Assembly: GCF_963921235.1 (NCBI RefSeq)
Contig: NC_086097.1
Coordinates: forward strand, 112,780,001 to 112,844,000
Origin: Mobula hypostoma
Taxonomy: Eukaryota
Direction: 5' to 3'
Length of the DNA: 64,000 nucleotides
Of the stretch, positions 3,250 through 64,000 are shown in pieces (position 1 is the stretch's first letter; every line of letters begins with the position of its first letter). The translations under genes and the position numbers were made by a program. The notes under the pieces were generated by a model. The model was not told where the DNA came from, did no database searches, and was given only the letters and a program-made list of their open reading frames with translations.

Positions 3250-5560
3250 GACCATAAGACATAGAGGCAAATCTAGGCCACTCAGCCCATCGAGTCTGCT
3301 TCGCCATTTTATCATCGTTGATCATTTCCCATTTAACCTCATTCTTCTGCCTTCTCTCCATAACCTTTCATGCCCTGACTAATCAGGATCCTATCAGCCT
3401 TCACCTTAAATGCATCCAGTGACTAGTCCTCACAGCTACCTGTGGCAGTGAATTCCACCAATTCACCACCTTCTGGCTAAAGAAATTCCTTCTCACCTCT
3501 GATGTAAATGGATGTTCCTCTATTTAGAGGTTGTGCCCTCTGGTCCAAGTCTCCTTCAACAAAGCAGTCACATCCACTCTATCTAGGCTGTTCAACATTT
3601 GATAGGTTTCAATGAGATTGCCCCACATTCTTTTAAATCCCGGCGAGTACAAGGCCAAAGCCTTAAATCACTGCTGATATCAGAAGACTTTTATTCCTGA
3701 AATCATTCTCACGAACATCCTCTGAACACTCTCCAATGTCAGCATATGTTTTTTCTTAAATAAGGAGCCTAAACCTGCTTACAATACTCTAAGTGAGGCC
3801 TCACTAGTGCCTTATAAAGCCTCAACATTACATCCTTGTTTTTATATTCAAGTCCTCTTGAAATGAATGCTAACATTGTATTTACTTTCCTCACCATCGA
3901 TCCAATCTGTAAATTAACCTTTAGAGAACCCTGCATGTGGACTCCATAATAGTTTATGCTTTTATTCCTTCTATCACGGTGCATGACAATACACATCCTG
4001 ACCCTGTATTCCATCTGCCACATCTTTGCCCATTCTTCCAATCTGTCCTTCTGCAGCCATTTCTGCTTGCTCAACACTACCTGCCCTCCACCTATCTTTG
4101 TATCATCTGAAAACTTGGCCACGAGGTAATCTATTTCATTATCCAAATCACTGACATACAATGTAAAAAGAAGCTGTCCCAACACAACTAGTGGAACACC
4201 ATTGGTCACCAGCAGTCAATTTGAAAAGGATCCCTTCATTCCCACTCTTTGCTTGCTGCCAATCAGCCAATGCTTTATGAATGCTAGTACCTTTCCAGTA
4301 ACACCCTAAGCTCTTCTCTTGTTTAGCAACCTCATGTGCTGCAACTTGTCAAAGGACTTCTGAAAATCCAAGTACACAACATCCATTGACTCTCCTTTGC
4401 CACTGACTCTGTTTGTCATTTCTCCAAGGAACTCCAGCGGATTTGCCAGGCAAGAATTTCCCTTATGGAATCCATGATAACTTGACCTATTTAGTCATGT
4501 GCCTCCAAGTACCCTGAAACCATATCCTTAACAATTGACTTCAACAGCTTTCCAACCACTGAGGTCAGGCTAACTGGCTGTAATTCCCTTTCTTCTGTCT
4601 CCCTCTCTTCTTGAAGAGCAGGGTAATATTTGCAATTTTTCCTGTCCTCCAGAATGATGCCAGACTCTCTTTATTCTTGAGAGATTATTACTAATGCCTC
4701 CATAATCACTTCAGTTACTTCTTTTAGAAACCTAGGGTATAGTCCATCAGGTCCAGGAGACTTACCTGCCTTCAAATCTTTCAGTTTGCAAGCACCATCT
4801 CCCTAGTAATAGCAACTACACTCGCTTCTACCCCCTGATACTCTCATACTTCCAGCATACTACTAGTGTCTTCCACAGTGAAGAACGATGCAAAATATTT
4901 ATTCAGTTTATCTGCCATTTCCTTGTCCCCCATTACTATCTCTCCAACGTCATTTTCCAGTGGTCTAATATCTACTCTCACCTCTCTTTTATTCTTTATA
5001 TATTTGAAAAAAAAATTGGTATCATTTTGATATAATTGGCCAGCTTACCTTTGTATTTCATCTTTTCCCCCTTTATGGTTTTTTTAGTTGCCTTCTGTGA
5101 GTTTTAAAAATTTCCCAATCCTCTAACTTCCTACTAATTTTTGCTCCAATACATGCCCTCTTGTTTGCTTTTATGTTGGCTTTGACTTTTCTTGTCAGCC
5201 ACAGTTACATCATCCTGCCTTTAGAATATTTCCTCTTCTTTAGGATGAATCTCTCCTGTGCCTTCCGAATTACTCCCAGGAACTCCAGCCATTACTGCTC
5301 TGCCATCATCCGTGCTAGTATCCCCTTCCAATCAACTTTTCCAGCTCCACTCTCATGCCTCTGTAATTCCCTTCACTCCACTGTAATAATTTTACATCTG
5401 ACTTTAGAGTCTCCCTCTCAAATTTCGAGTGAATTCTATCATAATATGATCACATAAACTCCCTAATCATATCTGGTTCATTAAACAACACCAAATCCAG
5501 AATTGTTGATCCCCTAGTGGGCTCAACCACAAGTTGCTCCAAAAAGCCATCTTGGCGTTT
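3250..5560 (-). mobile_element. Degenerate CR1-clade LINE (ORF2 RT region + 3' end)
   Basis: ORF 3769..4209 has KFSDDTKIGG and YKALVRPHLEYC motifs, many stops/frameshifts, and a CR1-type 3' tail. Confidence 0.85.
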
Positions 5561-9835: not shown

Positions 9836-12370
9836 AACCATAGAAACTACAGCACAGAAACAGGCCTTTTGGCCCTTCTTGGCTGTGCCGAACCATTTTC
9901 TGCCTAGTCCCACTGACCTGCACACGGACCATATCCCTCCATACACCTCCCATCCATGTATCTGTCCAATTTATTCTTAAATGTTAAAAAAGAACCCGCA
10001 TTTACCACCTCGTCTGGCAGCTCATTCCATACTCCCACCACTCTCTGTGTGAAGAAGCCCCCCCTAATGTTCCCTTAAAACTTTTCCCCCCTCACCCTTA
10101 ACCCATGTCCTCTGGTTTTTTTCTCCCCTTGCCTCAGTGGAAAAAGCCTGCTTGCATTCACTCTATCCATACCCATCATAATTTTATATACCTCTATCAA
10201 ATCTCCCCTCATTCTTCTATGCTCCAGAGAATAAAGTCCTAACCTATTCAACCTTTCTCTGTAACTGAGTTTCTCAAGTCCCGGCAACATCCTTGTAAAC
10301 CTTCTCTGCACTCTTTCAACCTTATTTATATCCTTCCTGTAATTTGGTGACCAAAACTGAACACAATACTCCAGATTCGGCCTCACCAATGCCTTATACA
10401 ACCTCATCATAACATTCCAGCTCTTATACTCAATACTTCGATTAATAAAGGCCAATGTACCAAAAGCTCTCTTTACGACCCTATCTACCTGTGACACCAA
10501 TTTTAGGGAATTTTGTATCTGTATTCCCAGATCCCTCTGTTCCACTGCACTCCTCAGTGCCTTACCATTAACCCTGTATGTTCTACATTGGTTTGTCCTT
10601 CCAACGTGCAATACCTCACACTTGTCAGTATTAAACTCCATCTGCCATTTTTCAGCCCATTTTTCCAGCTGGCCAAGTCCCTCTGCAGGCTCTGAAAACC
10701 TTCCTCACTGTCTACTACACCTCCAATCTTTGTATCATCAGCAAACTTGCTGATCCAATTTACCACGTTATCATCCAGATCATTGATATAGATGACAAAT
10801 AACAATGGACCCAGCATTGATCCCTGTGGTACATCACTAGTCACAGGCCTCCACTCAGAGAAGCAATTCTCTACCACTACTCTCTGGCTTCTTCCATCGA
10901 GCCAATGTCTAATCCAATTTACCACCTCTCCATGTATACCTAGTGACTGAATTTTCCTAACTAACCTCCCATGCGGGACCTTGTCAAAGGCCTAACTGAA
11001 GTCCATATAGACAATATCCACTGCCTTCCCTTCATCCACTTTCCTGGTAACCTCCTTGAAAAACTCCAACAGATTGGTCAAACATGACCATTTTGACATT
11101 TTCACAAAGCCATTTTGACTCTCCCTAATAAGCCCCTGTCTATCCAAATGCTTGTAGATTCTGTCTCTTAGTACTCCCTCCAATAACTTACCTACTACTG
11201 ACGTTAAACTCACCGACCTATAATTTCCCGGATTACTTTTCGATCCTTTTTTAAACAACGGAACAACATGAGCCACTCTCCAATCCTCCGGCACTTCACC
11301 CGTAGACAGCGACATTTTAAATATTTCTGCCAGGGCCCCCGCAATTTCAACACTAGTCTCCTTCAAGGTCCGAGGGAACACTCTGTCAGGTCCCGGGGAT
11401 TTATCTACTTTAATTTTTCTCAAGACAGCAAGCACCTCCACCTTTTCAATCTGTACAGTTTCCATGGTCTCACTACTTGATTCCCTCAATTCCATAGATT
11501 TCATGCCAGCTTCCTTAGTAAATACAGATGCAAAAAACGTATTTAAGATCTCCCCCATTTCCTTTGGTTCCGCACAAAGCCAACCACTCTGATCTTCAAG
11601 AGGACCAATTTTATCCCTTACAATCCTTTTGCTCTTAATATACTTGTAAAAGCTCTTTGGATTATCCTTCACTTTGACTGCCAAGGCAACCTCATTTCTT
11701 CTTTTTGCCCTCCTGATTTCTTTCTTAAGTATTTTCTTGCACTTCTTATACTCCTCAAGCACCTGATTTACCCCCTGTTCCCTATACATTTCATACAACT
11801 CCCTCTTCTTCTTCATCAGAGTTGCAATATCCCTTGAGAACCAAGGTTCCTTATTCCTATTCAATTTGCCTTTAATCCTGACAGGAACATACAAACTCTG
11901 TACTCTCAAAATTTCCCCTTTGAAGGCTTCCCACCTACCAATCACATCTTTGCCAGAGAACAACCTGTCCCAAACCATGCTTTTTAGATCCTTTCTCATT
12001 TCTACAAATTTGGCCTTCTTCCAGTTCAGAACCTCAACCCTAGGACCAGATCTATCCTTGTCCATGATCAAATAGAAACTAATGGTGTTATGATCACTGG
12101 AACCAAAGTGCTCCCCTACACAGACTTCTGTCACTTGCCCTAACTCGTTTCCTAACAGGAGATCCAATATTGCATCCCCTCTAGTTGGTCCCTCTATATA
12201 CTGATTTAGAAAACTTTCCTGAACACATTTTACAAACTCTAAACCATCTAGACCCCTAACAGTATGGGAGTCCCAATCAATGTATGGAAAATTAAAATGC
12301 CCTACCACCACAACTTTATGTTTCCTGCAGTTGCCTGCTATCTCTCTGCAGATTTGCTCTTCCAAGTCCA
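9836..12370 (-). mobile_element. Young 5'-truncated CR1 LINE (end of APE endonuclease + RT), with a premature stop and a frameshift
   Basis: ORFs 10992..12371 (GHFNFP, LDLLL, SDH; PGPD; NYRSVSLTS), 10554..10925 (PQGSMLGP, FADDTK) and 10075..10641. Confidence 0.92.
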
Positions 12371-12410
12371 AGATAGGTAGATAGGTATTCTATATATAGA
12401 ACAAGATGCT

Positions 12411-13567
12411 CATAGAAACATGGAAACATAGAAAATAGGTGCAGGAGTAGGCCATTCGGCTCTTCGAGCCTGCACCGCCTTTTATTATGATCATGGCTGA
12501 TCATCCAACTCAGACCCCTGGCCCAGCCTTCCCTCCATAACCCCTGATCCCCGTAGCCACAAGGGCCATATCTAACTCCCTCTTAAATATAGCCAATGAA
12601 CTGGCCTCAACTGTTTCCTGTGGCAGAGAATTCCACAGATTCACCACTCTCTGTGTGAAGAAGTTTTTCCTAATCTCGGTCCTAAAAGGCTTCCCCTTTA
12701 TCCTCAAACTGTGACCCCTCGTTCTGGACTTCCCCAACATCGGGAACAATTTTCCTGCATCTAGCCTGTCCAATCCCTTTAGGATTTTATATGTTTCAAT
12801 CAGATCCCCCCTCAATCTTCTAAATTCCAATGAGTACAAGCCCAGTTCATCCAGTCTTTCTTCATATGAAAGTCCTGCCATCCCAGGAATCAATCTGGTG
12901 AACCTTCTTTGTACTCCCTCTATGGCAAGGATGTCTTTCCTCAGATTAAGGGACCAAAACTGCACACAATACTCCAGGTGTGGTCTCACCAAGGCCTTGT
13001 ACAACTGCAGTAGTACCTCCCTGCTCCTGTACTCGAATCCTCTCGCTATAAATGCCAGCATACCATTCGCCTTTTTCACCGCCTGCTGTACCTGCATGCC
13101 CACTTTCAATGACTGGTGTATAATGACACCCAGGTCTCGTTGCACCTCCCCTTTTCCTAATCGGCCACCATTCAGATAATAATCTGTTTTCCTATTTTTG
13201 CCACCAAAGTGGATAACTTCACATTTATCCACATTAAATTGCATCTGCCATGAATTTGCCCACTCACCCAACCTATCCAAGTCGCTCTGCATCCTCTTAG
13301 CATCCTCCTCACAGCTAACGCTGCCACCCAGCTTCGTGTCATCCGCAAACTTGGAGATGCTGCATTTAATTCCCTCATCCAAGTCATTAATATATATTGT
13401 AAACAACTGGGGTCCCAGCACTGAGCCTTGCGGTACCCCACTAGTCACTGCCTGCCATTCTGAAAAGATCCCGTTTATTCCCACTCTTTGCTTCCTGTCT
13501 GCTAACCAATTCTCTATCCACATCAATACCTTACCCCCAATACCGTGTGCTTTAAGTTTGCACACTC
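12411..13567 (-). mobile_element. Young CR1 LINE 3' fragment with an uninterrupted 351-aa RT C-terminal ORF
   Basis: ORF 12510..13565 (GVPQGSVLGP, FADDTKLGG, VRPHLEYCVQFWS). The 3' end carries (CTATGTTT)-type tail repeats. Confidence 0.93.
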
Positions 13568-17230: not shown

Positions 17231-18180
17231 CTTTTTCACTGACACTTTCACTCTCAATTTCTACGTCATCACAGCTGGTATATTCTGGAGTAGATGCAAG
17301 CTCTTCCTCTGAGCTGCTCAACGAGACCTGCCGCATTTTACCTCCTTTCTTTGTTTTATGTGGCTTTGGTGGTGGTGGCCTCACTGATTCCGACTGATCT
17401 GAGCTGAGCGAGTCGTTTCGCAGCATGGTTTCCATCTTTTCCCGTTTAGTTTTCTTAACTGCAGAACTTGGATCCAAGTGTTGTTGTTTCCGCATTGAAT
17501 CAGAATGACGAACGTCACCCCTATCAAATGGAATTGGACTTCGCCTGGGTGTTGGTGGACTGTGATTTGGGGTCCTTTGCCAACTAGAACTAGGCCCTTG
17601 TAGGTCTTGAGTTCTCTCCATTGAGTAAGAACGCTGACTTTGCACAGGGACCCTGCGATCACATGCAGAACGTTGTCGTGACTGCCTTTCCATTCTATGC
17701 TTTGAAATTTGTACATCATCCATCTCTGTGTATGCCAAAGAAACATCACTGTGTCTTCGTTCATGACGTACCCGAGACATCTCAGCATGCATTCGCATTT
17801 GCTCCTCGTACGGTTGTGGTTTGACAGGATAACGTGCCAAATTTGGATCACTACGATAACGAGTCTGATACTCTCCCTCTCGTCTCTGTCGCTCATATTC
17901 ATCTCTACTTTGTGTATCAATATCCTCATCTACTAAATCTCGGAACTCTTGAGACCGCCTTAGACTTCTGCGTGTGGAGTCCCTGCTTTCTCTGTACTCA
18001 ATGTGTTCAGAGTCATCGTAAGCCCACGAGCCTCGCAACGATCGCTTGTCACGGTCTGCATATTCTGTCGGCGACCTCTGCATTGCACTTTCCAAAAGTG
18101 CATACTGTGATGGATCTGCTCTGTCGTCCTTCTGGTGGTATTTCCGATTGTGTTCCCTGGATGTTGATGGGCTCCTTTTC
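17231..18180 (-). CDS. RIMS2: RIMS2 internal coding exon (950 nt; region between the zinc finger and the PDZ domain)
   Basis: Translates as (R)KRSPSTSREHNRKY...YQTRYRSDPNLARYPVKPQPYEEQMRMHAEMSRVRHERRHSDVSL...MLRNDSLSSDQSESVRPPPPKPHKTKKGGKMRQVSLSSSEEELASTPEYTSCDDVEIESESVSEK(G), which I recognise as RIM2. Acceptor tttccttccAG|G at 18181/18180 (phase 2). Donor AAAG|GTAAGC at 17231/17230 (phase 1). Confidence 0.96.
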
Positions 18181-18572
18181 CTGGAAGGAAATAAATATAA
18201 ATTCAGTCAGAGGCACTTTGCATGCAGCAAAGTGCTAAATTAAACCATCAATGCCTTGCTGTACATACAAATTGAAAATTGTGAAAGACAGTTAGGCATT
18301 AATTATGACTATCATAAGTGCAAAATATTAAAGCATTTTGCTTACTATTCATTCTAAATTAAACTGCGAAACAAAGCCTGATATCAAAGCACGTCAACAT
18401 CAAATCATTTTACGACTCATCACAAAATATTGCTTTCAAACAGAAATTTCAGGCCCATGAAACATCATAGCTTTATTCACACATTTTAAGATTACATCCT
18501 CACCTCCCCCCTCTCCCCCCTCCCCCCCCCCGCACCACACACACTTTTTATTAAACATCTTCCTCGGTTTAC

Positions 18573-18631
18573 CTTTCCGTTTGCCATTGCACATCTGGGA
18601 GATAGAGGAAATTATATCCAGAAGAATGCAT
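18573..18631 (-). CDS. RIMS2: Candidate proximal alternative first exon of RIMS2 (MHSSGYNFLYLPDVQWQTE-R)
   Basis: ATG at 18631 with an upstream in-frame TAA, 19 codons + AG, donor AAG|GTAAAC in phase 2, 392 nt from the large exon's acceptor. G-runs follow the donor. No homology support. Confidence 0.38.
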
Positions 18632-19330: not shown

Positions 19331-20464
19331 TAAATCCAGGGTACCAGTTTATACATTCCCTTAATTTATTGCTGAACAAAAAAAAAATCACACAGGAAAT
19401 GTGCTTTATCATTGCACACGGCTGAACAGTCAATTATCTAGAACTTTCTGTCATACTTGGAATTTAGCCAGTTTTGGAAGTCATTTCAGTTTAGTCACTG
19501 CCATTACTCCAAGCACGTATGACAAAAGGTTGCTGTCTCTGATGGACCAAGATTTAACTGCTGATGTGAAGGATTTGAACAGACAATAAAGTGAAAACAA
19601 GTAAGTGTTCCCTTATCACTGGAATGCCAATCAAAGGAACGGGAAAACCATTTCTCCAGAAGTTAAATAGAACAAAGCCCAAAAATGTCATAGCTGAAGT
19701 TTCAAATTTTGCTTTAAATTATATAATCATATCATTTGGATCTGGCACTGCTAATACAGGTCTCATAATATTTTAGTATTTGAAAATGTTAAATATTTGA
19801 CAAAGAACAATTGTTTTCTTTTCATTTTCAAGCATTTTAGTGGTATGTTGGAATAACCTGGTCAATTTTAACAACATAAGATGAAATGAGGTAAGGTTGA
19901 ACTGAAATTTTGGAACATATTATTAAGAGTAGACCCTTCAGTCTGGTCTATGACCTAACTGCACAAATCCTTTTATAGCTAGTCTCCTAATATATTTAAT
20001 GGACAAAGATAAATCAAACTCAGATTTGAAATCAGCAATTGACTTATCATTAATTGATGTTTGCAGTACTGTAGTCTGTTCCAAACTTGACTCTGAAAAT
20101 ACAACCAAACTAGTCCCAGAGTGCTTAACCAGTTTATTTCATCCACCTTATTTGTTCCCCATAATACTTTTTTTTAAAAAAAATAAGCTTTCAAACCTCT
20201 TACATTCAAGGGATATGATTTTAAAATCTATGCCCATTGTTTAATGACTGGAATCCGATAGAATTCTGTTAAAGCAATGTTGCCCTCCTGCAAAGGACAA
20301 TGATTACACATCCTAAGGTATAATAAGAAGAATTGCTGGGCTTTGTAAACTGGTTGGGCTACATTTGAAGTACTATTAGGAGGTTATACTTACTTGTAAA
20401 CCTTGAACACAAAGGCCAACAGTCCATGATCTTTTTGATTACTGTCAGTACCTGTCAGTGACAT

Positions 20465-28055: not shown

Positions 28056-28391
28056 GGCATATGTCAGTCACTATGCAAATTAAGAAAGCAGCACATTGGG
28101 AAAATGCTAAACTAATCCAGTAAAGTCATCACAGACTCATGAAGGAGAACAAATTTATTAGAGGTTCCTGAGGAGGTCTCGACCAGAGGCATAGAGGAGA
28201 ACCAGGAGATGCATTGCACTTGAATTTCCAGAAGACATTTGACTAAGTGTCTCACAGTAGCTTAAGTCACAAGATAAGAACACATTGTGTTGGAGATAAT
28301 ATATTGGCAATGGATAGAGGACTGGATAACAGGCAGGATGGATATAGAAGTCATTTCAGGCTGGCGACCTCTACTCTAACCATAGAAATCA

Positions 28392-29090
28392 GTCACCGAA
28401 AGTAAGCATGCAGGTACAGCAGGCAGTGAAGAAAGCTAATGGCATGTTGGCCTTCATAACAAGGGGAGTTGAGTATAGGAGCAAAGAGGTCCTTCTGCAG
28501 TTGTACAGGGCCCTGGTGAGACCACACCTGGACTATTGTGTACAGTTTTGGTCTCCAAATTTGAGGAAGGACATTCTAGCTATTGAGGGAGTGCAGCGTA
28601 GGATCACGAGGTTAATTCCCGGGATGGCGGGACTGTCATATGTTGAAAGATTGGAGCAACTGGGGTTGTATACGCTGGAATTTAGAAGGATGAGAGGGAA
28701 TCTGATTGAAATATATAAGATTATCAAGGGATTGGACACGCTAGAGGCAGGAAACATGTTCCCGATGTTGGGGGAGTCCAGAACCAGAGTCCACAGTTTA
28801 GGAATAAGGGGTAGACAATTTAGAACGGAGTTGAGGAAAAACTTTTTCACACAGAGGGTTGTGGTTCTGTGGAATGCTCTGCCTCAGAAGGCAGTGGAGG
28901 CCAATTCTCTGGATTTTTTCACGAAAGAGTTAGATAGAGCTCTTAAAGATAGCGGAGTGAAGGGATATGGGGAGAAGGCAGGAAAAGGGTACTGATTGTG
29001 GATGATCAGCCATGATCACAGTGGATGCTGGTGCTGTCTCAAAGGGCTGAATGGCCTACTCCTGCACCTATTGTCTATTGTCTATTGTCT
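28392..29090 (+). mobile_element. Young CR1 LINE 3' fragment, related to 12411-13567 and in opposite orientation
   Basis: ORF 28408..28995 (VQQAVKKANGMLAFI...LELYTLEFRR-like). (CTATTGT)n tail. AAATCA on both flanks. Confidence 0.9.
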
Positions 29091-47708: not shown

Positions 47709-48515
47709 CAGTGCTTATAAAAATCATTCACCCCTGCCTTGGACATTTCCGTATTTTGTAGGTTTTCAATTGGATTGAGGTCTGGACTCTGACTTGGCCA
47801 CTCCAGGATTTTAACTTTGTTGTTTTTAAACCATTCATGAGTAGCTTTGGTTTCATGCTTGGGATCATTGTCTTACTGGGAAACAAATTTTCTCCTAATT
47901 CACAGTTCTCTTGCAGACAGCATCAGGTTTTCCTCCAGGATTTCCCTGTATTTTGCTGCATTCATTCTACCCTCTACCTTCACAAGCCTTCCAGGGCCTG
48001 CTGCAGTGAAGCACCCCCACAGCATGATGCAGCCACCACCATGCTTTATAGTAGCGATGGTCTGTTTTTGTTGATGTGTGGTGTTTGGCTTATGACAAAA
48101 ATAGCGTTTAGTTTGATGGCCAAAAAGCACAACTTTGGGTTCATCAGAGCATAGAACCTTCTTCCAGTTGACTTCAGAGTCTCCCGCATGCCTGCTGGCA
48201 AATTCAAGCCCAGATTTCATGTAAGATTTTTTTCAACAGTGGCTTTCTCTTTGCCACTCTCCCGTAAAGCTGCGACTGGTGAAACACCCAAGCAACAATT
48301 GTATACGCAGTCTCTGCCATCTCAGCCACTAAAGCTTGTAACTCCTTCAGAGTTGTTGAGTTGTCATAGGTGTCTTGGTGGCCTCCCACACTAAAGCTGT
48401 GCCATATTCTTTCCATTTCTTGATGATTGACTTAACTGTAGTCCGAAGGATATTCAGTGACTTGGAAATTTTTTTTGTTTCCATCTCCTGACTTGTGTTT
48501 TTCAATATCTTTTGT
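47709..48515 (-). mobile_element. Tc1-family DNA transposon remnant (transposase pseudogene)
   Basis: ORF 47900..48220 reads WKKVLCSDE.K..LFG...TIKHGGGCIMLWGCF...GRLVKVEGRMNAAKYREILEENL. Tc1-type end cagtgcttataaaaatcattcacccc at 47709. Confidence 0.85.
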
Positions 48516-49295: not shown

Positions 49296-49889
49296 TGACA
49301 ATGTAACTAAATGTATTTCCAAATTGAATAGCACCACTTCAGATATCCGACCTGGAACTTCCCATCACAAATTGTGCAGTTGAGGCATATTCCATTTCAG
49401 GAGTGAGCATAATGATAACTTTCCTGGTGCGCGGCTCATTTACAGCATTACTGGGAGAAATTAGGTCGTGCTGATTCAAGCCACATTTATCATTAGTAAC
49501 ACACAAATAACCAGGTTTTCACAGAGTTCACTGCTTACCCTGCAGCTGCACTGTTTAAAGGGGTCTCCCAGAGCGAATCCCAGTATTGTGCTGGGATCTG
49601 ACGTGATTTATTTATCATATCTCCTTTGGGCTACCTTACAGGCAACTCATCTCCTCACCAAAGCCTATGAACCTCCACCCATGTCCTACATCACCCAACA
49701 CCCCCACATTGTTCATCCACTGAGTAACCAGCCCTAACCACAGACTGCAGTGCCATCATTTCACTGCTAGCTCAATGATAGTCAATTGTATTCCCTTTGA
49801 TATTTTAATATTCTAACCAGAGTCCACCAATACTAATTACTGGCAGCCAGCACTCACCCTACGACACAATCGATCCATGACCCATCATC

Positions 49890-50342
49890 AGCAAGCTCCC
49901 CCCCCCCATCCCGCTGGGTCTCATCACTTCGTTCCACTCCTCTTACCATTCCTCCCTTGGCCTACTGCCCTCTCCTATCAGATTCCTTCTTCCTCAGCCC
50001 TTTACCTCTTCCACCTATCTGCTCCCAGCTGCTCACTTCTTCTCCCTTGCCCCACCCATCCACCATCCCAATCACATGGCTTCACCTATCATCTGCCAGC
50101 TTTCACTCCTTCCCCTCCGCCCATCTTCTTATTTTGGCTCCTCCTCCCTTCATTTCCAGTCTTGATGAAGGGTCTCAGTCTGAGCCGTAGACTGCTCATT
50201 CCCCTCCATTGATACAAGAAAATCTGCAGATGCTGGAAATCCAAAGCAACACACACAAAAAGCTGGGAGAACTCAGCAGGCTAGGCAGCGTCTATGGAAA
50301 AGAGTAAACAGTCGACATTTTGGGCTGAGACTTGATGAAGGT
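49890..50342. mobile_element. Two adjacent Penelope-like terminal fragments in opposite orientation
   Basis: A + copy ends at ~50210 (cagtcttgatgaagggtctcag), and a - copy spans 50213-50340. Confidence 0.6.
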
Positions 50343-58244: not shown

Positions 58245-59850
58245 TCAAAGCTCAAAGTTCAAAGTAAATTTAGAATCAAGTATGTGTATGTCACCAAATA
58301 CTACTCTGAGATTCATTTTCTTGTAAGCATTCACAATAGATACAATGAAACACAATAGAATCAATGTAAAAGTACACACAAAAATGGATAAACACTAATG
58401 TACAAAAGAGGACACACTGTACAAATAAAAAAACAAATAATTAATAAATAAATAATATTGAGAATATGAGTTGTTGCGTTCTTGAAAATAAACCCATAGT
58501 TTGTGATATCTCCTCTTATTTACCCCTTGAACATGACCCCACCAAGGAGCACCAGGCCATTGTCTCCCACACTGTCACCGACCTTATCAGCTCTGGGGAT
58601 CTCCCATCCACTGCTACCAACCTCATAGTTCCCACACCGCACACTTCCCATTTGTACCTCCTACCCAAGATCCACAAACCTGCCTGTCCAGATAGACCCA
58701 CTGTTTCAGCTTGCTTCTGCCCCACCGCATTTCTGCATGCCTCGACACTGTTTTATCCCCTCTTGTTCAATCCCTTCCCACCTATGTTCGTGACACTTCT
58801 CATGCTTTGGATTTTTTCAATGATTTCAAGTTCCCTGGTCCCCATCATCTTATTTTCATCATGGATGTCCAGTCCCTATATCCCTCCATCCCCCACCAGG
58901 AAGGTCTCAAACCTCTCTGCTTTTTTTTGGATTCCAGACCTAACCAATTCCCCTCTACCAGCACTCTCTTCTGTCTAGCGGAATTGGTCCTTACTCTTAA
59001 TAATTTCTCCTTTGGCTCCTCCCACTTCCTCCAAACTAAAGGTATAGCCATGGGCACCTGTATGGGCCCCAGCTATGCCTGCTTTTCTGTTGGCTTTGTG
59101 GAACAGTCCATGTTCCAAGCCTATACTGGTACACTCAGGTTGGAGGAACAATACCTTATATTCCACCTGGGTAGCCTCCAACCTGATGGCATGAACATTA
59201 ATTTCTCTGACTTCCGTTAATGCCCCTCCTCCCCTTCTTACCCCATCCCTGATTTTTATTTTATTTTATTATTTTTCTCTCTTTCCCTCTCACAATAACT
59301 CCTTGCCTGTTCTCCATTTTCCTCTGGTTCTCCCCTCCTCTTCTCTTTCTTCCAAGGCCTTCTGTCCCATGATACTCCCCCTTCTCCAGCCTTGTATCCC
59401 TTTTGCCAATCAACTTCCCAGCTCTTAGCTTCATCCCTCACCCTCCTGTCTTCTCCTATCATTTTGGATCTCCCCCTCCCCCTCCCACTTTCAAATCTCG
59501 TACTATCTCTTTTTTCCGTTAGTCCTGACAAAAGGTCTCGACCCGAAACGTCGACTGTACTTCTTCCTATAGATGCTGCCTGGCCTGCTGCCTTCCACCA
59601 GCGTTTTGTGTGTGTTGCCATAGTTTGTGGAATCAGTTCCGTGTTGAGGTGAGTGTGGGTTTCCACACTGGTTCAGAAGCCTGATGGTTGAAGGGTAATA
59701 ACTGTTTCTGAACCTGGTGGTGTAGGACCCAGGGATTCTGTATCTCCTTCCCAATGGCAGCATCAAGAAGAGAACATGGTTTGGATGGTGGGGGGATACT
59801 CTGATGACAGATGCTGTTTTCTTGTGGCAGTGCTCCTTGTAGATATGATC
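58245..59850 (-). mobile_element. Rex1/Babar-type LINE 3' fragment split by a Penelope-like insertion
   Basis: The 3' UTR at 58245-58505 continues at 59630-59850. Confidence 0.7.
58506..59617 (+). mobile_element. Internally deleted Penelope-like element with a 12-bp target-site duplication
   Basis: PLE RT motifs (LYLLPKIHKP; MDVQSLYPSIP; QTKGIAMGTCMGPSYA) are fused directly to TLRLEEQYLIFHLGSLQPDGMNINFSDFR. ccatagtttgtg occurs at 58494-58505 and 59618-59629. Confidence 0.9.
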
Positions 59851-60660: not shown

Positions 60661-61449
60661 TATTTGATTTCCTTACAAACAATTAAGGAAAAGCTTTTCA
60701 CAGTTTCAACCTCACTTTATCTTAGTTTGTTTGTGCAGCTACATTAATAATTTGTGGCATTTTGGACGTTACATCAGTTTACAAATTTCTCACATCAACC
60801 CTGACCTGGAAACTATAGGCCTCAATCTTATGGTTTATAAATAACCGTAGCAAATGTTGTCAAATTTAAAGGTTTGTCAAGGACATATTTTCTGTCTTTA
60901 CACATTAACCAGTTTGATCAATTTCATAAATAAATCCACCAGAATATACAGTATCTGTGCACAAACACATCAAAATTAAAAATATTTGCAATTGAAAACA
61001 TTGGAAAACATTGAAAGTTCCCTCCAAACACCCATTCTTTATCTGTATTTGTATCCAGCAGATTCTAATATATACTTCTCTGATTAAATAAATTAAAGCA
61101 GCGACTACCTCGTCAAATACTTTCATAACGTATTTCTTATAGACTGTTCTAAAATACATAAAACTGTAATTTAATAATTGGTTTATAAAATGTTAAAATG
61201 ATTATACAAGGAAAACCTTGCCATTTTTATTTATAAGATGAGAGACCCTCCAACAACCCTTGGACAGAAACTTTTAACAATGGAATTTTCCTACCTTTAG
61301 ATCTTTGATGGTCTCCCTCTTGCCTGCTTGCAAGTACGTTCTGTGTAATACTTTACCTGATACTATGGCAGAACTTACACAACCTATGCAATCCAACACC
61401 AGAAAAGTGATCAGTTCCTGAAACAACTAATTTGAAATGGGCCAAGTAC

Positions 61450-61517
61450 CTGCAGTCAGACGTATCTGTTTCCTCAATAGTTGGTAGCCTGCTAGTCGTA
61501 CCAGTAACCCTGAACAT
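61450..61517 (-). CDS. RIMS2: Candidate second alternative first coding exon of RIMS2 (MFRVTGTTSRLPTIEETDTSDC-R)
   Basis: ATG at 61517 with an upstream in-frame TAG, 22 codons + AG, donor CAG|GTACTT in phase 2. A second in-frame phase-2 donor (CAG|GTAAAG) lies at 61357/61356. The region is TE-free. Confidence 0.6.
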
Positions 61518-62499
61518 CCACACGCTATCCAAACAGCAGAGTGGGCAGAAGAACTACCCATCACACTAATTAATTACTTAGTTTCAAATGATGGCAGCAA
61601 TTTCTTCAAAACTTTAAAACACATGTCACCGGGATTCCAGGAAAGCTCTGTGTTTCTGCTTTGGTTTTCTGACAGTTAAAGTAGATTTCAAGATTTACGA
61701 GATCCATTGCCACTGGAAGTCTCCCTGCAGCAAAGAGGAGGAGGAGCACGAATTGTTGCCTGAGCAGTCAACTGCACCTGTCCAAGTCACTGTGCACTTT
61801 TCAAAAGCAACCCAGCATGATTATGTCTCAAAAAAATGTGCATTTTGTGGATTTTGGTACTTTTTAGTTTACGTGTAGTATTTTCCCTCAATATCAATTT
61901 CTTGAAAGATATACTATATACAATAGTATATAACAAAACAATAATACAAGACCAATATCAAAAATAAATACACCTACTTGAACAATTGAAATGAATATTA
62001 AGCATTAAGACTACCCTTTAAGAGAGTGCTGTATTTTCTATGTCACATGCCAAGGCCATACTATGTTACAGTTTGCAAACAATGAAATTAATCCTCTTTT
62101 TAAGAAAAGTTATACACTGTCTTCGCTTGCAATCATACCCTCAATACTGTAAGATCGAATTCTCACAGGAAAACAATAGTACTTCTGCAGATAAAATGCC
62201 AGCATAATTCAAACATCATCTGGTAGTTAAGATTGAACATTAAAATGGTAATGAGATCAAGACCTTTAAAATTTGTAATGAGCTCAATACAGATTTTAAA
62301 TTTATTGTTTTCAATTCCTACAGAGCCTTAGAGTATAATCTGATTAGTTCCTTTTATTTGTGTAAACGGTATTCTAACTTTTTAAATTTCTATCAATGCC
62401 ATTTTAATACATCAAATAAGGGTTTATTTTTCAGGGATGGGAAATTTGAAACGAGACTTATACTGTCTTCTGCAATTACATGAGAAGTGATTTACTCAC

Positions 62500-62624
62500 C
62501 CAAGGTTGCTTAGTGCTCGTTCAAAGAACTCATTTTGGAGAAGGATGTCATGTTGGTTTGAGAAAACATTATTTAAACTGGTTAAAACAGAACTGCAGAA
62601 CTGACGCAGTGCTTCAAACTGCAT
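62500..62624 (-). CDS. RIMS2: RIMS2 alternative first coding exon (RIM2-beta-type N-terminus)
   Basis: ATG at 62624 gives MQFEALRQFCSSVLTSLNNVFSNQHDILLQNEFFERALSNL+GG, then donor GG|GTGAGT. Phase 2 fits the 18180 acceptor. It closely resembles the mammalian RIM2-beta start MQFETLRQVCNSVLSHFHGVF...ILQNELF (recalled from memory). Confidence 0.88.
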
Positions 62625-63080
62625 TTTCAGCCTTTACCCCCATGTACTGTGAGGCCGTCTATCTCACTTGTAACATCAAATGCCAAAATGCCAATCACAT
62701 GCCTAAATCATCCTGACCTGTGTAAAAACTACGATCTGATGAACACCAGTCAATGGTTAATTGTTCAGACGCCACCCGCTAATTCATCCAGAGAGGCTAA
62801 GAATTTTTAACACCATTACTGACTGTAGCAATAGTGCTTTGCAGCAGTGAGGGCTCCCCATTCCCAGCTGCAGCGTCGAGCACTCACAGATTTCTACTAT
62901 CTGAATGCTTATTAAACAAACACAGGCAAGATGCTTTCATCAGGAATTCAAGCACATCTGACTTCCAACAACCAGGCTTCGCACGGAATCAGACCAAGGG
63001 AGGAGGCAAATGCAATGGAAAAGGAAAAGAACAGCCCGTACGTCTATACGTCTTTAAGGTACATCTCAAATGAAAAATAG
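62625..63080 (-). promoter_or_regulatory. Putative 5' UTR / internal promoter of the RIM2-beta-type transcript
   Basis: Unique, TE-free sequence directly upstream of the ATG at 62624. Position is the only evidence; no transcription start site is visible. Confidence 0.4.
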
Positions 63081-63087
63081 GCAAATA

Positions 63088-63107
63088 ACGGAGAGGGAGA
63101 GGGAGAG

Positions 63108-63142
<35 letters not shown>

Positions 63143-63495
63143 AAGAGAGAGAGACAGAGATAGAGAGAGAGAGAGAGGAGGGAGTGAGAGAGAGAGAGAG
63201 GAGAGAGAGGAGGAAGAGGGAGTGAGAGAGAGAGAGAGAAAGAGAGAGCAAGTGTGGGCATATATGTGTGTGAGAGAATGAGAGAGCAAGTGCGTATGTG
63301 AGACGGAGAGAGAGAGTGTGTGTGTGAGAGAATATGAGGGTGAGTGTCTGCGTGAAAGAGAGAGAAAGAGAGCATGTGTGTGAGACAGAGAGAGAGAATG
63401 TGTGCGAGAGAGAATGAGAGAGTGTGTGCTTGAGAGAGAATGTGTGTGTGCAAGAGAACGTGTGTGCGAGAGAATGTGTGTGAGAGAATGAAAGA

Positions 63496-63526
<31 letters not shown>

Positions 63527-64000
63527 GGAGAATGAAAGAGTGTGTGTGTGAGAGACAGAGATAGTGTGTGTGTGAGACAGAGAGAGAGTGTGTGTGTGTG
63601 TGAGAGGGAGAAAATGTGTGTGTGAGAAAGTGAGTGTGTATGTGAGAGAAAGAATGAGAGTGAGTGCGTGTGTGTGCATCTGAGAGAGTGAGTGTGTGTA
63701 TGTGAGACAGAGAGTGAGAATGTGTGTGTGAGAGAATGAGAGAGTGAGAGTGTGTGCGAGAGAATGTGTGTGTGAGAGAAAGAAAGAGAAAGTGTGTGTG
63801 TGTGTGAGAGAGGGAGAAAGTGTGTGTGAGAGAGTGTGTGTATGAGAGAGAGAATGTGTGTGTGAGAGAGTGAGTGGGTATGTGAGAGAAATAATGAGAG
63901 TGAGTGCTTGTGTGTGCATGTGAGAGAGTGAGAGTGTGTATATGAGACAGAGAGTGAGAATGTGTGTATGAGAAAATGAGAGAGTGAGTGTGTATGGGAG
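63088..64000. repeat. (GA)n/(GT)n compound low-complexity array, running off the window end
   Basis: Mixed GA/GT tracts. A ~110-bp block at ~63640-63750 recurs at ~63880-63990. Confidence 0.95.

Follow-up and report, generated by a model that had tools for sequence, protein, structure and literature searches.

A probable RIM2-beta-type first coding exon of RIMS2 in a Mobula ray, with counterparts in cartilaginous and ray-finned fishes

Three promoters have been described for RIM2, one of which gives rise to a beta form that lacks both the helix and the zinc finger (PMC10169678, PMC7273530) and, in human, the beta transcript (RIMS2-beta, cited as NM_001348494) is ascribed to an internal promoter (PMC7273530). 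Internal promoters also provide the RIM2-gamma first exon and the N-terminus of RIM1-beta (PMC10169678); compared by description, RIM1-beta is devoid of the N-terminal helix, whereas RIM2-beta is devoid of helix and zinc finger. Outside the RIM genes, the alpha isoforms of DLG2/PSD-93, whose palmitoylated N-termini derive from alternative promoters (PMC6389146), offer a model of how a membrane-anchored RIM2-beta might work, in the sense that, as in RIM2-beta, use of another first exon makes a protein-binding domain at the N-terminus of a synaptic scaffold give way to a short end with Cys, no homology being claimed. RIMS2 loss causes retinal synaptic disease (PMC7273530), most photoreceptor RIMS2 is without the zinc finger according to a passage that does not name beta (PMC7273530), and RIM2-alpha and -beta have been related to the abundance of CaV1.3 in hair cells (as cited in PMC10169678). 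RIM2-beta itself has so far been described only by what is missing from the protein. Passages of PMC5462952 hold no beta data and, in a mostly open-access literature, no title was found that deals with how old the beta exon is or with what its peptide does; a word of this peptide was likewise unmatched.

The locus presented here is no new kind of system. Like mammalian RIM2-beta, the ray form would have a short N-terminus of its own, joined in phase 2 to an exon beginning with KRSPS, and neither helix nor zinc finger; promoter activity and expression have been shown for human RIM2-beta, whereas the ray form is known here from sequence. The elements concerned, within the window (the whole stretch of 64,000 nt of Mobula hypostoma DNA that was analysed), are the following:

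62500..62624, minus strand: coding part of the putative RIM2-beta-type first exon, 41 codons + 2 nt, with a predicted helix at residues 2-22 and an invariant Cys10
62494..62499, minus strand: phase-2 splice donor GTGAGT, identical in sequence and position in the metagenome loci L001 and L002
18181..62499, minus strand: intron of 44,319 nt with many LINE-like remnants, in which the alpha (zinc-finger) exon was not found (best alpha match E 0.79)
18181..18205, minus strand: acceptor site of the large exon, with polypyrimidine tract and AG
17231..18180, minus strand: RIMS2 large linker exon, KRSPS...ESESVSEK, 950 nt, with a phase-1 donor at its end, common to alpha and beta forms

The start codon occupies 62624-62622 and the last exon bases, GG (62501-62500), are directly followed by the donor (62499-62494), so that the coding part measures 125 nt and ends in phase 2. 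Joined to the acceptor ...tttccttccag/G at 18181/18180, this GG and the G at 18180 form a Gly codon, after which KRSPS follows in an open frame. The earlier note had described precisely such an ATG-initiated frame of 41 codons, with a GG/GTGAGT donor in a phase fitting the large exon, about 44 kb upstream of its acceptor, and both the frame and the distance are confirmed by the coordinates. Since there is an in-frame stop four codons 5' of the ATG, the frame is not enterable from far upstream; read without splicing, it runs into a stop just past the donor and yields 42 aa, which is under the usual ORF cut-offs. The large exon is that of RIMS2, as 316/316 of its residues are identical to the Mobula hypostoma protein and 315/316 to that of M. 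birostris, which points to a devil ray, or a species very close to one, and hence to a chondrichthyan. No alpha-type exon (Rab3 helix or zinc finger) was detected anywhere within the window (best E 0.79), which fits a placement of the alpha exons beyond 64000. RIMS2 exons past 17231 are not found inside the window either, the PDZ and C2 exons being outside it, and no Pfam domain was recognized in the 41-residue peptide or in the large exon.

A protein search with the 41-residue peptide gave six matches out of 10 candidates, all of them RIMS2 and with E values down to 1e-13: four models from Rhinoraja (93% identity; among them XP_078253997.1 and XP_078253994.1 of Rhinoraja longicauda), one from Scyliorhinus torazame (88%; XP_072323302.1) and one from Callorhinchus (76%; XP_042188124.1 of C. 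milii). In all six chondrichthyan matches the peptide is the N-terminus of the protein (preceded by two further residues in S. torazame) and is joined straight to KRSPS, and the window and the skate form share 38/41 residues. As for the domains recognized by Pfam, protein P0003 bears PDZ and C2 domains and is without the zinc finger, which the alpha-type protein P0106 has. The HMMER search returned six matches, four of them bearing the exon, one of which, from the eel Anguilla anguilla, shows an identical join; two others, P0127 and P0129, proved to be unrelated proteins of the TPR type, whose helices match by chance, and were set aside. When the eel exon was used as query, 650 matches were obtained from 660 candidates at E up to 10. 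Those listed (120 of 650) are all from ray-finned fishes, Polypterus, Erpetoichthys, Acipenser, Polyodon and Danio among them, and in 118 of these 120 proteins the ATG codes for the first residue; ray-finned-fish models, such as the Danio rerio X35-X44 series, are 56-63% identical to the ray peptide. Among the matches listed in the three protein searches (120 each for those of 136 and 650 matches), there was no tetrapod or named mammalian protein. Of the long proteins fetched that contain the junction word, 125 begin with the beta exon and 165 with other or alpha-type ends, and the beta exon and the zinc-finger word co-occur in none of the fetched proteins. RefSeq XP models are predictions, usually drawing on RNA-seq.

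Since the exon occurs in holocephalans, elasmobranchs and actinopterygians, its age, judged by this distribution, is at least that of the jawed-vertebrate ancestor, a dating for which mammals are not required. A similarity to vertebrate RIMS2 N-termini, which the earlier note had anticipated, was thus found in skate, catshark, chimaera and ray-finned fishes, and its proposal that a chondrichthyan source would take the beta exon back to the jawed-vertebrate ancestor is supported by the chimaera, elasmobranch and ray-finned-fish N-termini. Its assignment to the RIM2-beta type is supported as well, in that the exon appears orthologous to that of a known isoform; the novelty that it implied is lowered, because RefSeq already predicts the isoform in sharks, skates and chimaeras. 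These RefSeq models of other fishes share with the ray the same N-terminal exon and junction, but in the records listed they are numbered as 'isoform X' and not named beta. With an isoform already known in mammals and predicted by RefSeq in other cartilaginous fishes, the result, although real, was for the most part to be expected, and RefSeq records that already exist suffice for the dating. In Mobula, none of the 21 fetched RIMS2 proteins bearing the large exon starts with the beta exon, which therefore looks unannotated there and makes an annotation gap probable. Short chondrichthyan RefSeq RIMS2 models of the gamma type were also noticed (P0134-P0136, P0143 and P0144; 267-284 aa), some of them labelled 'protein 4', and all three RIM2 starts seem to be present in cartilaginous fishes, as far as these models indicate. 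The beta and RIM2-gamma N-termini show no significant similarity to each other (shuffle p 0.34-0.92); a word common to both, 'FEAL', was considered and rejected as not significant by shuffles.

The connection with mammals is more indirect. A metagenome scan yielded two confirmed loci, L001 and L002, out of 118 pattern matches; both keep the ATG and the phase-2 GTGAGT, and their exon is one codon shorter than that of the window, as it is in most bony-fish forms. L001 is teleost-like. The L002 exon reads MQFETLRQVCNSVLSHFHGVFSSPPNILQNDLFGQTLNNT and then AG/GTGAGT, and it matches the window exon with 71% identity over 136 nt (E 1.6e-11) and 21/40 residues, the peptide alignment scoring 96 against a maximum of 46 in 5000 shuffles. 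On the human side, a qPCR forward primer specific for beta (PMC7273530, Table S1C), read by eye, encodes T-L-N-N-A-R-K-R and spans the same junction: the residues before it are T-L-N-N-A-R/KR in the human primer, A-L-S-N-L-G/KR in the window and A-L-N-N-L-G/KR in the skate. By eye, the last 17 exon bases agree with this primer at 13/17 positions in L002, 9/17 in the window and 8/17 in L001. L002 being the best match, it is closer to the human form, and it is probably a tetrapod contig. The chain from the window to L002 and from there to the human primer supports orthology with the mammalian beta exon, and the evidence that the window exon is homologous to it, with 17 primer nucleotides as the human link, is indirect but consistent. 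As to what the earlier note said of the mammalian protein, internal promoters of RIMS2 and a beta form without helix and zinc finger are described in the literature (PMC7273530, PMC10169678), and the mammalian beta start that it gave agrees with that of L002; a named mammalian protein is absent among the matches listed.

On this basis, the exon at 62500..62624 would open the coding sequence of the RIM2-beta form that RIMS2 produces in a Mobula-like ray, a reading to which we assign a probability of about 0.9. In the mechanism that we propose, an internal promoter near 63000, located in the intron after the alpha exons, would start the beta transcript, which would be spliced from 62500 to 18180. 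The resulting protein would keep the PDZ, C2A and C2B domains, and with them the binding to calcium channels and scaffold, and would be without the Rab3/Munc13-binding region, so that its calcium-channel role would be uncoupled from priming; at release sites, beta RIM2 would then serve to organize calcium channels or to modulate them, with no part in vesicle tethering and priming, as described for mammalian RIM2-beta. This channel-organizer reading fits the hair-cell CaV1.3 role and the zinc-finger-less RIMS2 of photoreceptors. With representatives in chimaeras, sharks, rays, bichirs and teleosts, and in the human lineage through the primer and L002, a priming-deficient RIM2 appears to be as old as jawed vertebrates.

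What, then, do the 41 residues contribute? In the last and least certain step, they might form a moderately amphipathic helix with an S-palmitoylated Cys10, so that the vesicle tether would be swapped for a plasma-membrane anchor, a suggestion by analogy that we hold only tentatively. AlphaFold2, run on an 8-row alignment of low diversity, predicts helices at residues 2-22 (pLDDT ~82) and 27-40, with a mean pLDDT of 73.9 and a pTM of 0.39; three unnamed ESM Atlas matches at 0.76-0.79 were uninformative. Residues 1-21 have a hydrophobic moment of 0.39 (shuffle p 0.027). Cys10 is present in 9/9 distinct N-termini and in L002. The alternative, which leaves the isoform as it is and competes with the anchor step only, is that the 41 residues are a mere carrier of the start codon or a protein-binding helix with an unlipidated Cys10, and that what matters is the promoter (through cell-type control, perhaps by E-boxes) together with the loss of the zinc finger. 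In its favour, Cys10 is the sole Cys, with no double-Cys motif and no basic cluster around it, while the DLG alpha ends, for which palmitoylation is described, carry a double-cysteine motif (PMC6389146); in ray-finned fishes the hydrophobic moment is of borderline significance (p 0.06-0.08); and no title on RIM2 palmitoylation was found in the searched literature. We rate a membrane anchor as no likelier than a protein-binding helix or a plain start carrier, and lean slightly towards the alternative.

Against the notion of a bare carrier stand the signs of constraint on the peptide. Substitutions fall mainly on third codon positions: between L001 and L002, they are distributed by position as 6/7/22 (pS 0.88, pN 0.14); with one window codon gapped at the best-scoring place, the corresponding counts are 11/7/22 for the window and L001 (pS 0.83, pN 0.22) and 12/10/16, a weaker codon bias, for the window and L002 (dN 0.35, dS 0.79). 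With low pN and saturated pS, the exon evolves like coding sequence, as judged by these comparisons. Moreover, 12 of the first 13 positions are invariant across nine distinct fish N-termini, which is beyond the needs of a bare carrier. Compared with five ray-finned fishes, 23-26/41 residues of the exon are identical, versus 27-30/60 in the next 60 linker residues and 180-230/316 in the whole large exon; by this measure the exon surpasses the adjoining linker in conservation but not the large exon as a whole, the latter point being in line with the alternative. The 41 residues of beta and its 5' region appear to be under selection and offer a small target (the helix at 2-22, Cys10 and two E-boxes), which matters for an isoform linked to the abundance of calcium channels in hair cells (as cited in PMC10169678).

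The 5' region in question lies immediately upstream of the start codon:

62632..63008, minus strand: conserved non-coding block, putatively 5' UTR and proximal promoter, ~370 nt collinear with L002 1607-1999

The alignment of this block with L002 scores 219.5, versus a mean of 50.6 and a maximum of 83.5 in 200 shuffles, while the downstream intron, taken as a control, scores 95 against L002, with a shuffle mean of 95.9. Aligned as a whole with L001, the long block gives no alignment (score 52, shuffle mean 50.4); a 70-nt part of it matches between L001 and L002 (E 4.7e-6). Two E-box words, CAGATG (62960) and CAGCTG (62870), are common to the window and L002; such E-boxes bind neural bHLH factors. 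In 63100-62625 there are ten upstream ATGs, which, if all of them were in the mRNA, could dampen translation; for most of them neither frame nor length is conserved. Further upstream, from 63100 to 64000, the block is adjoined by ~900 nt of degenerate CT/CA simple repeat with a strong GC skew.

An improbable alternative to the internal promoter is that the coding exon is real but not the first of its transcript, being entered through the weak acceptor TTTTTACACAG/G at 62718. It would then be spliced either to a non-coding exon further upstream or into the alpha transcript, whose frame would end there. The acceptor-like word does lie inside the part of the block that is conserved in the window, L001 and L002, and the upstream block contains neither a TATA word nor a CpG island (CpG o/e 0.52). 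However, the tract at 62718 is short, the place of its AG differs among the window, L001 and L002, and conservation with L002 goes on unbroken for ~290 nt further upstream; the zinc finger is joined to the beta exon in none of the fetched proteins, and an internal promoter is what has been described for the human beta transcript (PMC7273530).

Still less probable is that the first exon is a conserved relic, silent in the ray lineage, for which the 0/21 fetched Mobula models starting with it could be adduced. The ATG, the frame, the donor and the upstream block are all intact, and 38/41 residues remain those of the skate form. Furthermore, the contig of a relative (X3) shows three differences over 62791-63100, compared with 33 over 60903-61704. 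This contig comes from one of four runs that were compared over 60900-63100, none of them recorded as RNA, and neither a joint nor a loose end was seen at 62500. X1, which is RNA only by conjecture, gave one contig (62441-62999) that is identical to the window and crosses the donor, running 59 nt into the intron, and is thus either unspliced or DNA; X2 gave one contig (62562-62773), X10 none, and X3 covers all 30 bins. The contigs of the four runs are counted as no evidence on expression.

The pattern of an ATG followed by a donor proves little by itself, as it is not unique in the window: ATG-to-phase-2-GTRAGT frames of at least 20 codons occur three times on the minus strand, starting at 62624, 49949 and 20464. 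The remaining reading, a chance pattern of this kind in a long intron, can find in the two further cases its only encouragement, and it is refuted by the matches to RIMS2 N-termini at E 1e-13 and by exon boundaries that are kept in L001 and L002. The frame at 62624 is the only one of the three with homologues among the fetched RIMS2 N-termini. The other two (49858-49949 and 20394-20464, minus strand) are unmatched there and were taken as chance.

Besides the RIM2-beta-type exon, two stretches of the window resemble other N-termini of fish RIMS2 models:

61450..61517, minus strand: candidate second alternative 5' exon (exon B) of 22 codons + 2 nt, ending in phase 2, with a weaker donor AG/GTACTT and the LxxIxE-type word LPTIEE
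18573..18631, minus strand: candidate third alternative 5' exon (exon C) of 19 codons + 2 nt, ending in phase 2 with the donor AG/GTAAAC, ~390 nt above the large-exon acceptor

Candidate exon B is identical at 17/23 positions to the N-terminus of a Heterodontus RIMS2 X1 model (P0068; E 4.8e-7), and exon C at 15/20 to those of two Chiloscyllium RIMS2 X2 models (P0072 and P0138; E 2.7e-7). Accordingly, among the fetched long proteins with the junction word, one begins with exon B and two with exon C. Neither was found in the L001 or L002 loci; these extend only ~0.8 and 2 kb beyond the donor, too little for exon C to be expected there. Both are to be taken as leads only, and against exon B speak its single model, its weak donor and the three differences listed in it between X3 and the window, all residue-changing by eye. 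Its LPTIEE, followed by acidic residues, is present in the window and in Heterodontus and is left unaltered by these three differences. Since LxxIxE is the consensus for PP2A-B56 docking (PMC7108865), LPTIEE is a candidate docking word by consensus match. The most far-reaching reading of the locus would combine these elements: the beta N-terminus would be a hitherto unrecognized membrane-targeting module, in place since the jawed-vertebrate ancestor, whose amphipathic helix and palmitoylated Cys10 would make of RIM2, otherwise a tether in vesicle priming, an organizer of calcium channels anchored in the plasma membrane, under an E-box promoter in sensory and secretory cells, with the elasmobranch exon B adding a PP2A-B56 docking word. 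As a whole, we consider this combination rather unlikely.

Some minor observations concern the surroundings of these exons. An acceptor-like tract (ctcctcctcctctttgctgcag/g) occurs at 61725, 207 nt upstream of the exon B ATG, and an exon starting from it would measure 275 nt and would not preserve the frame. Nothing in the window convincingly matches the N-terminus of S. torazame X26, which is 9 residues long. Broken ORFs that by eye look like reverse-transcriptase/endonuclease remnants (LINE or Penelope-type) lie at 10075-13565 and 3769-4215 on the minus strand and at 28348-28995 and 58448-59220 on the plus strand, and the ORF pieces at 47762-48232 resemble, also by eye, the remnant of a Tc1/mariner-type transposase.
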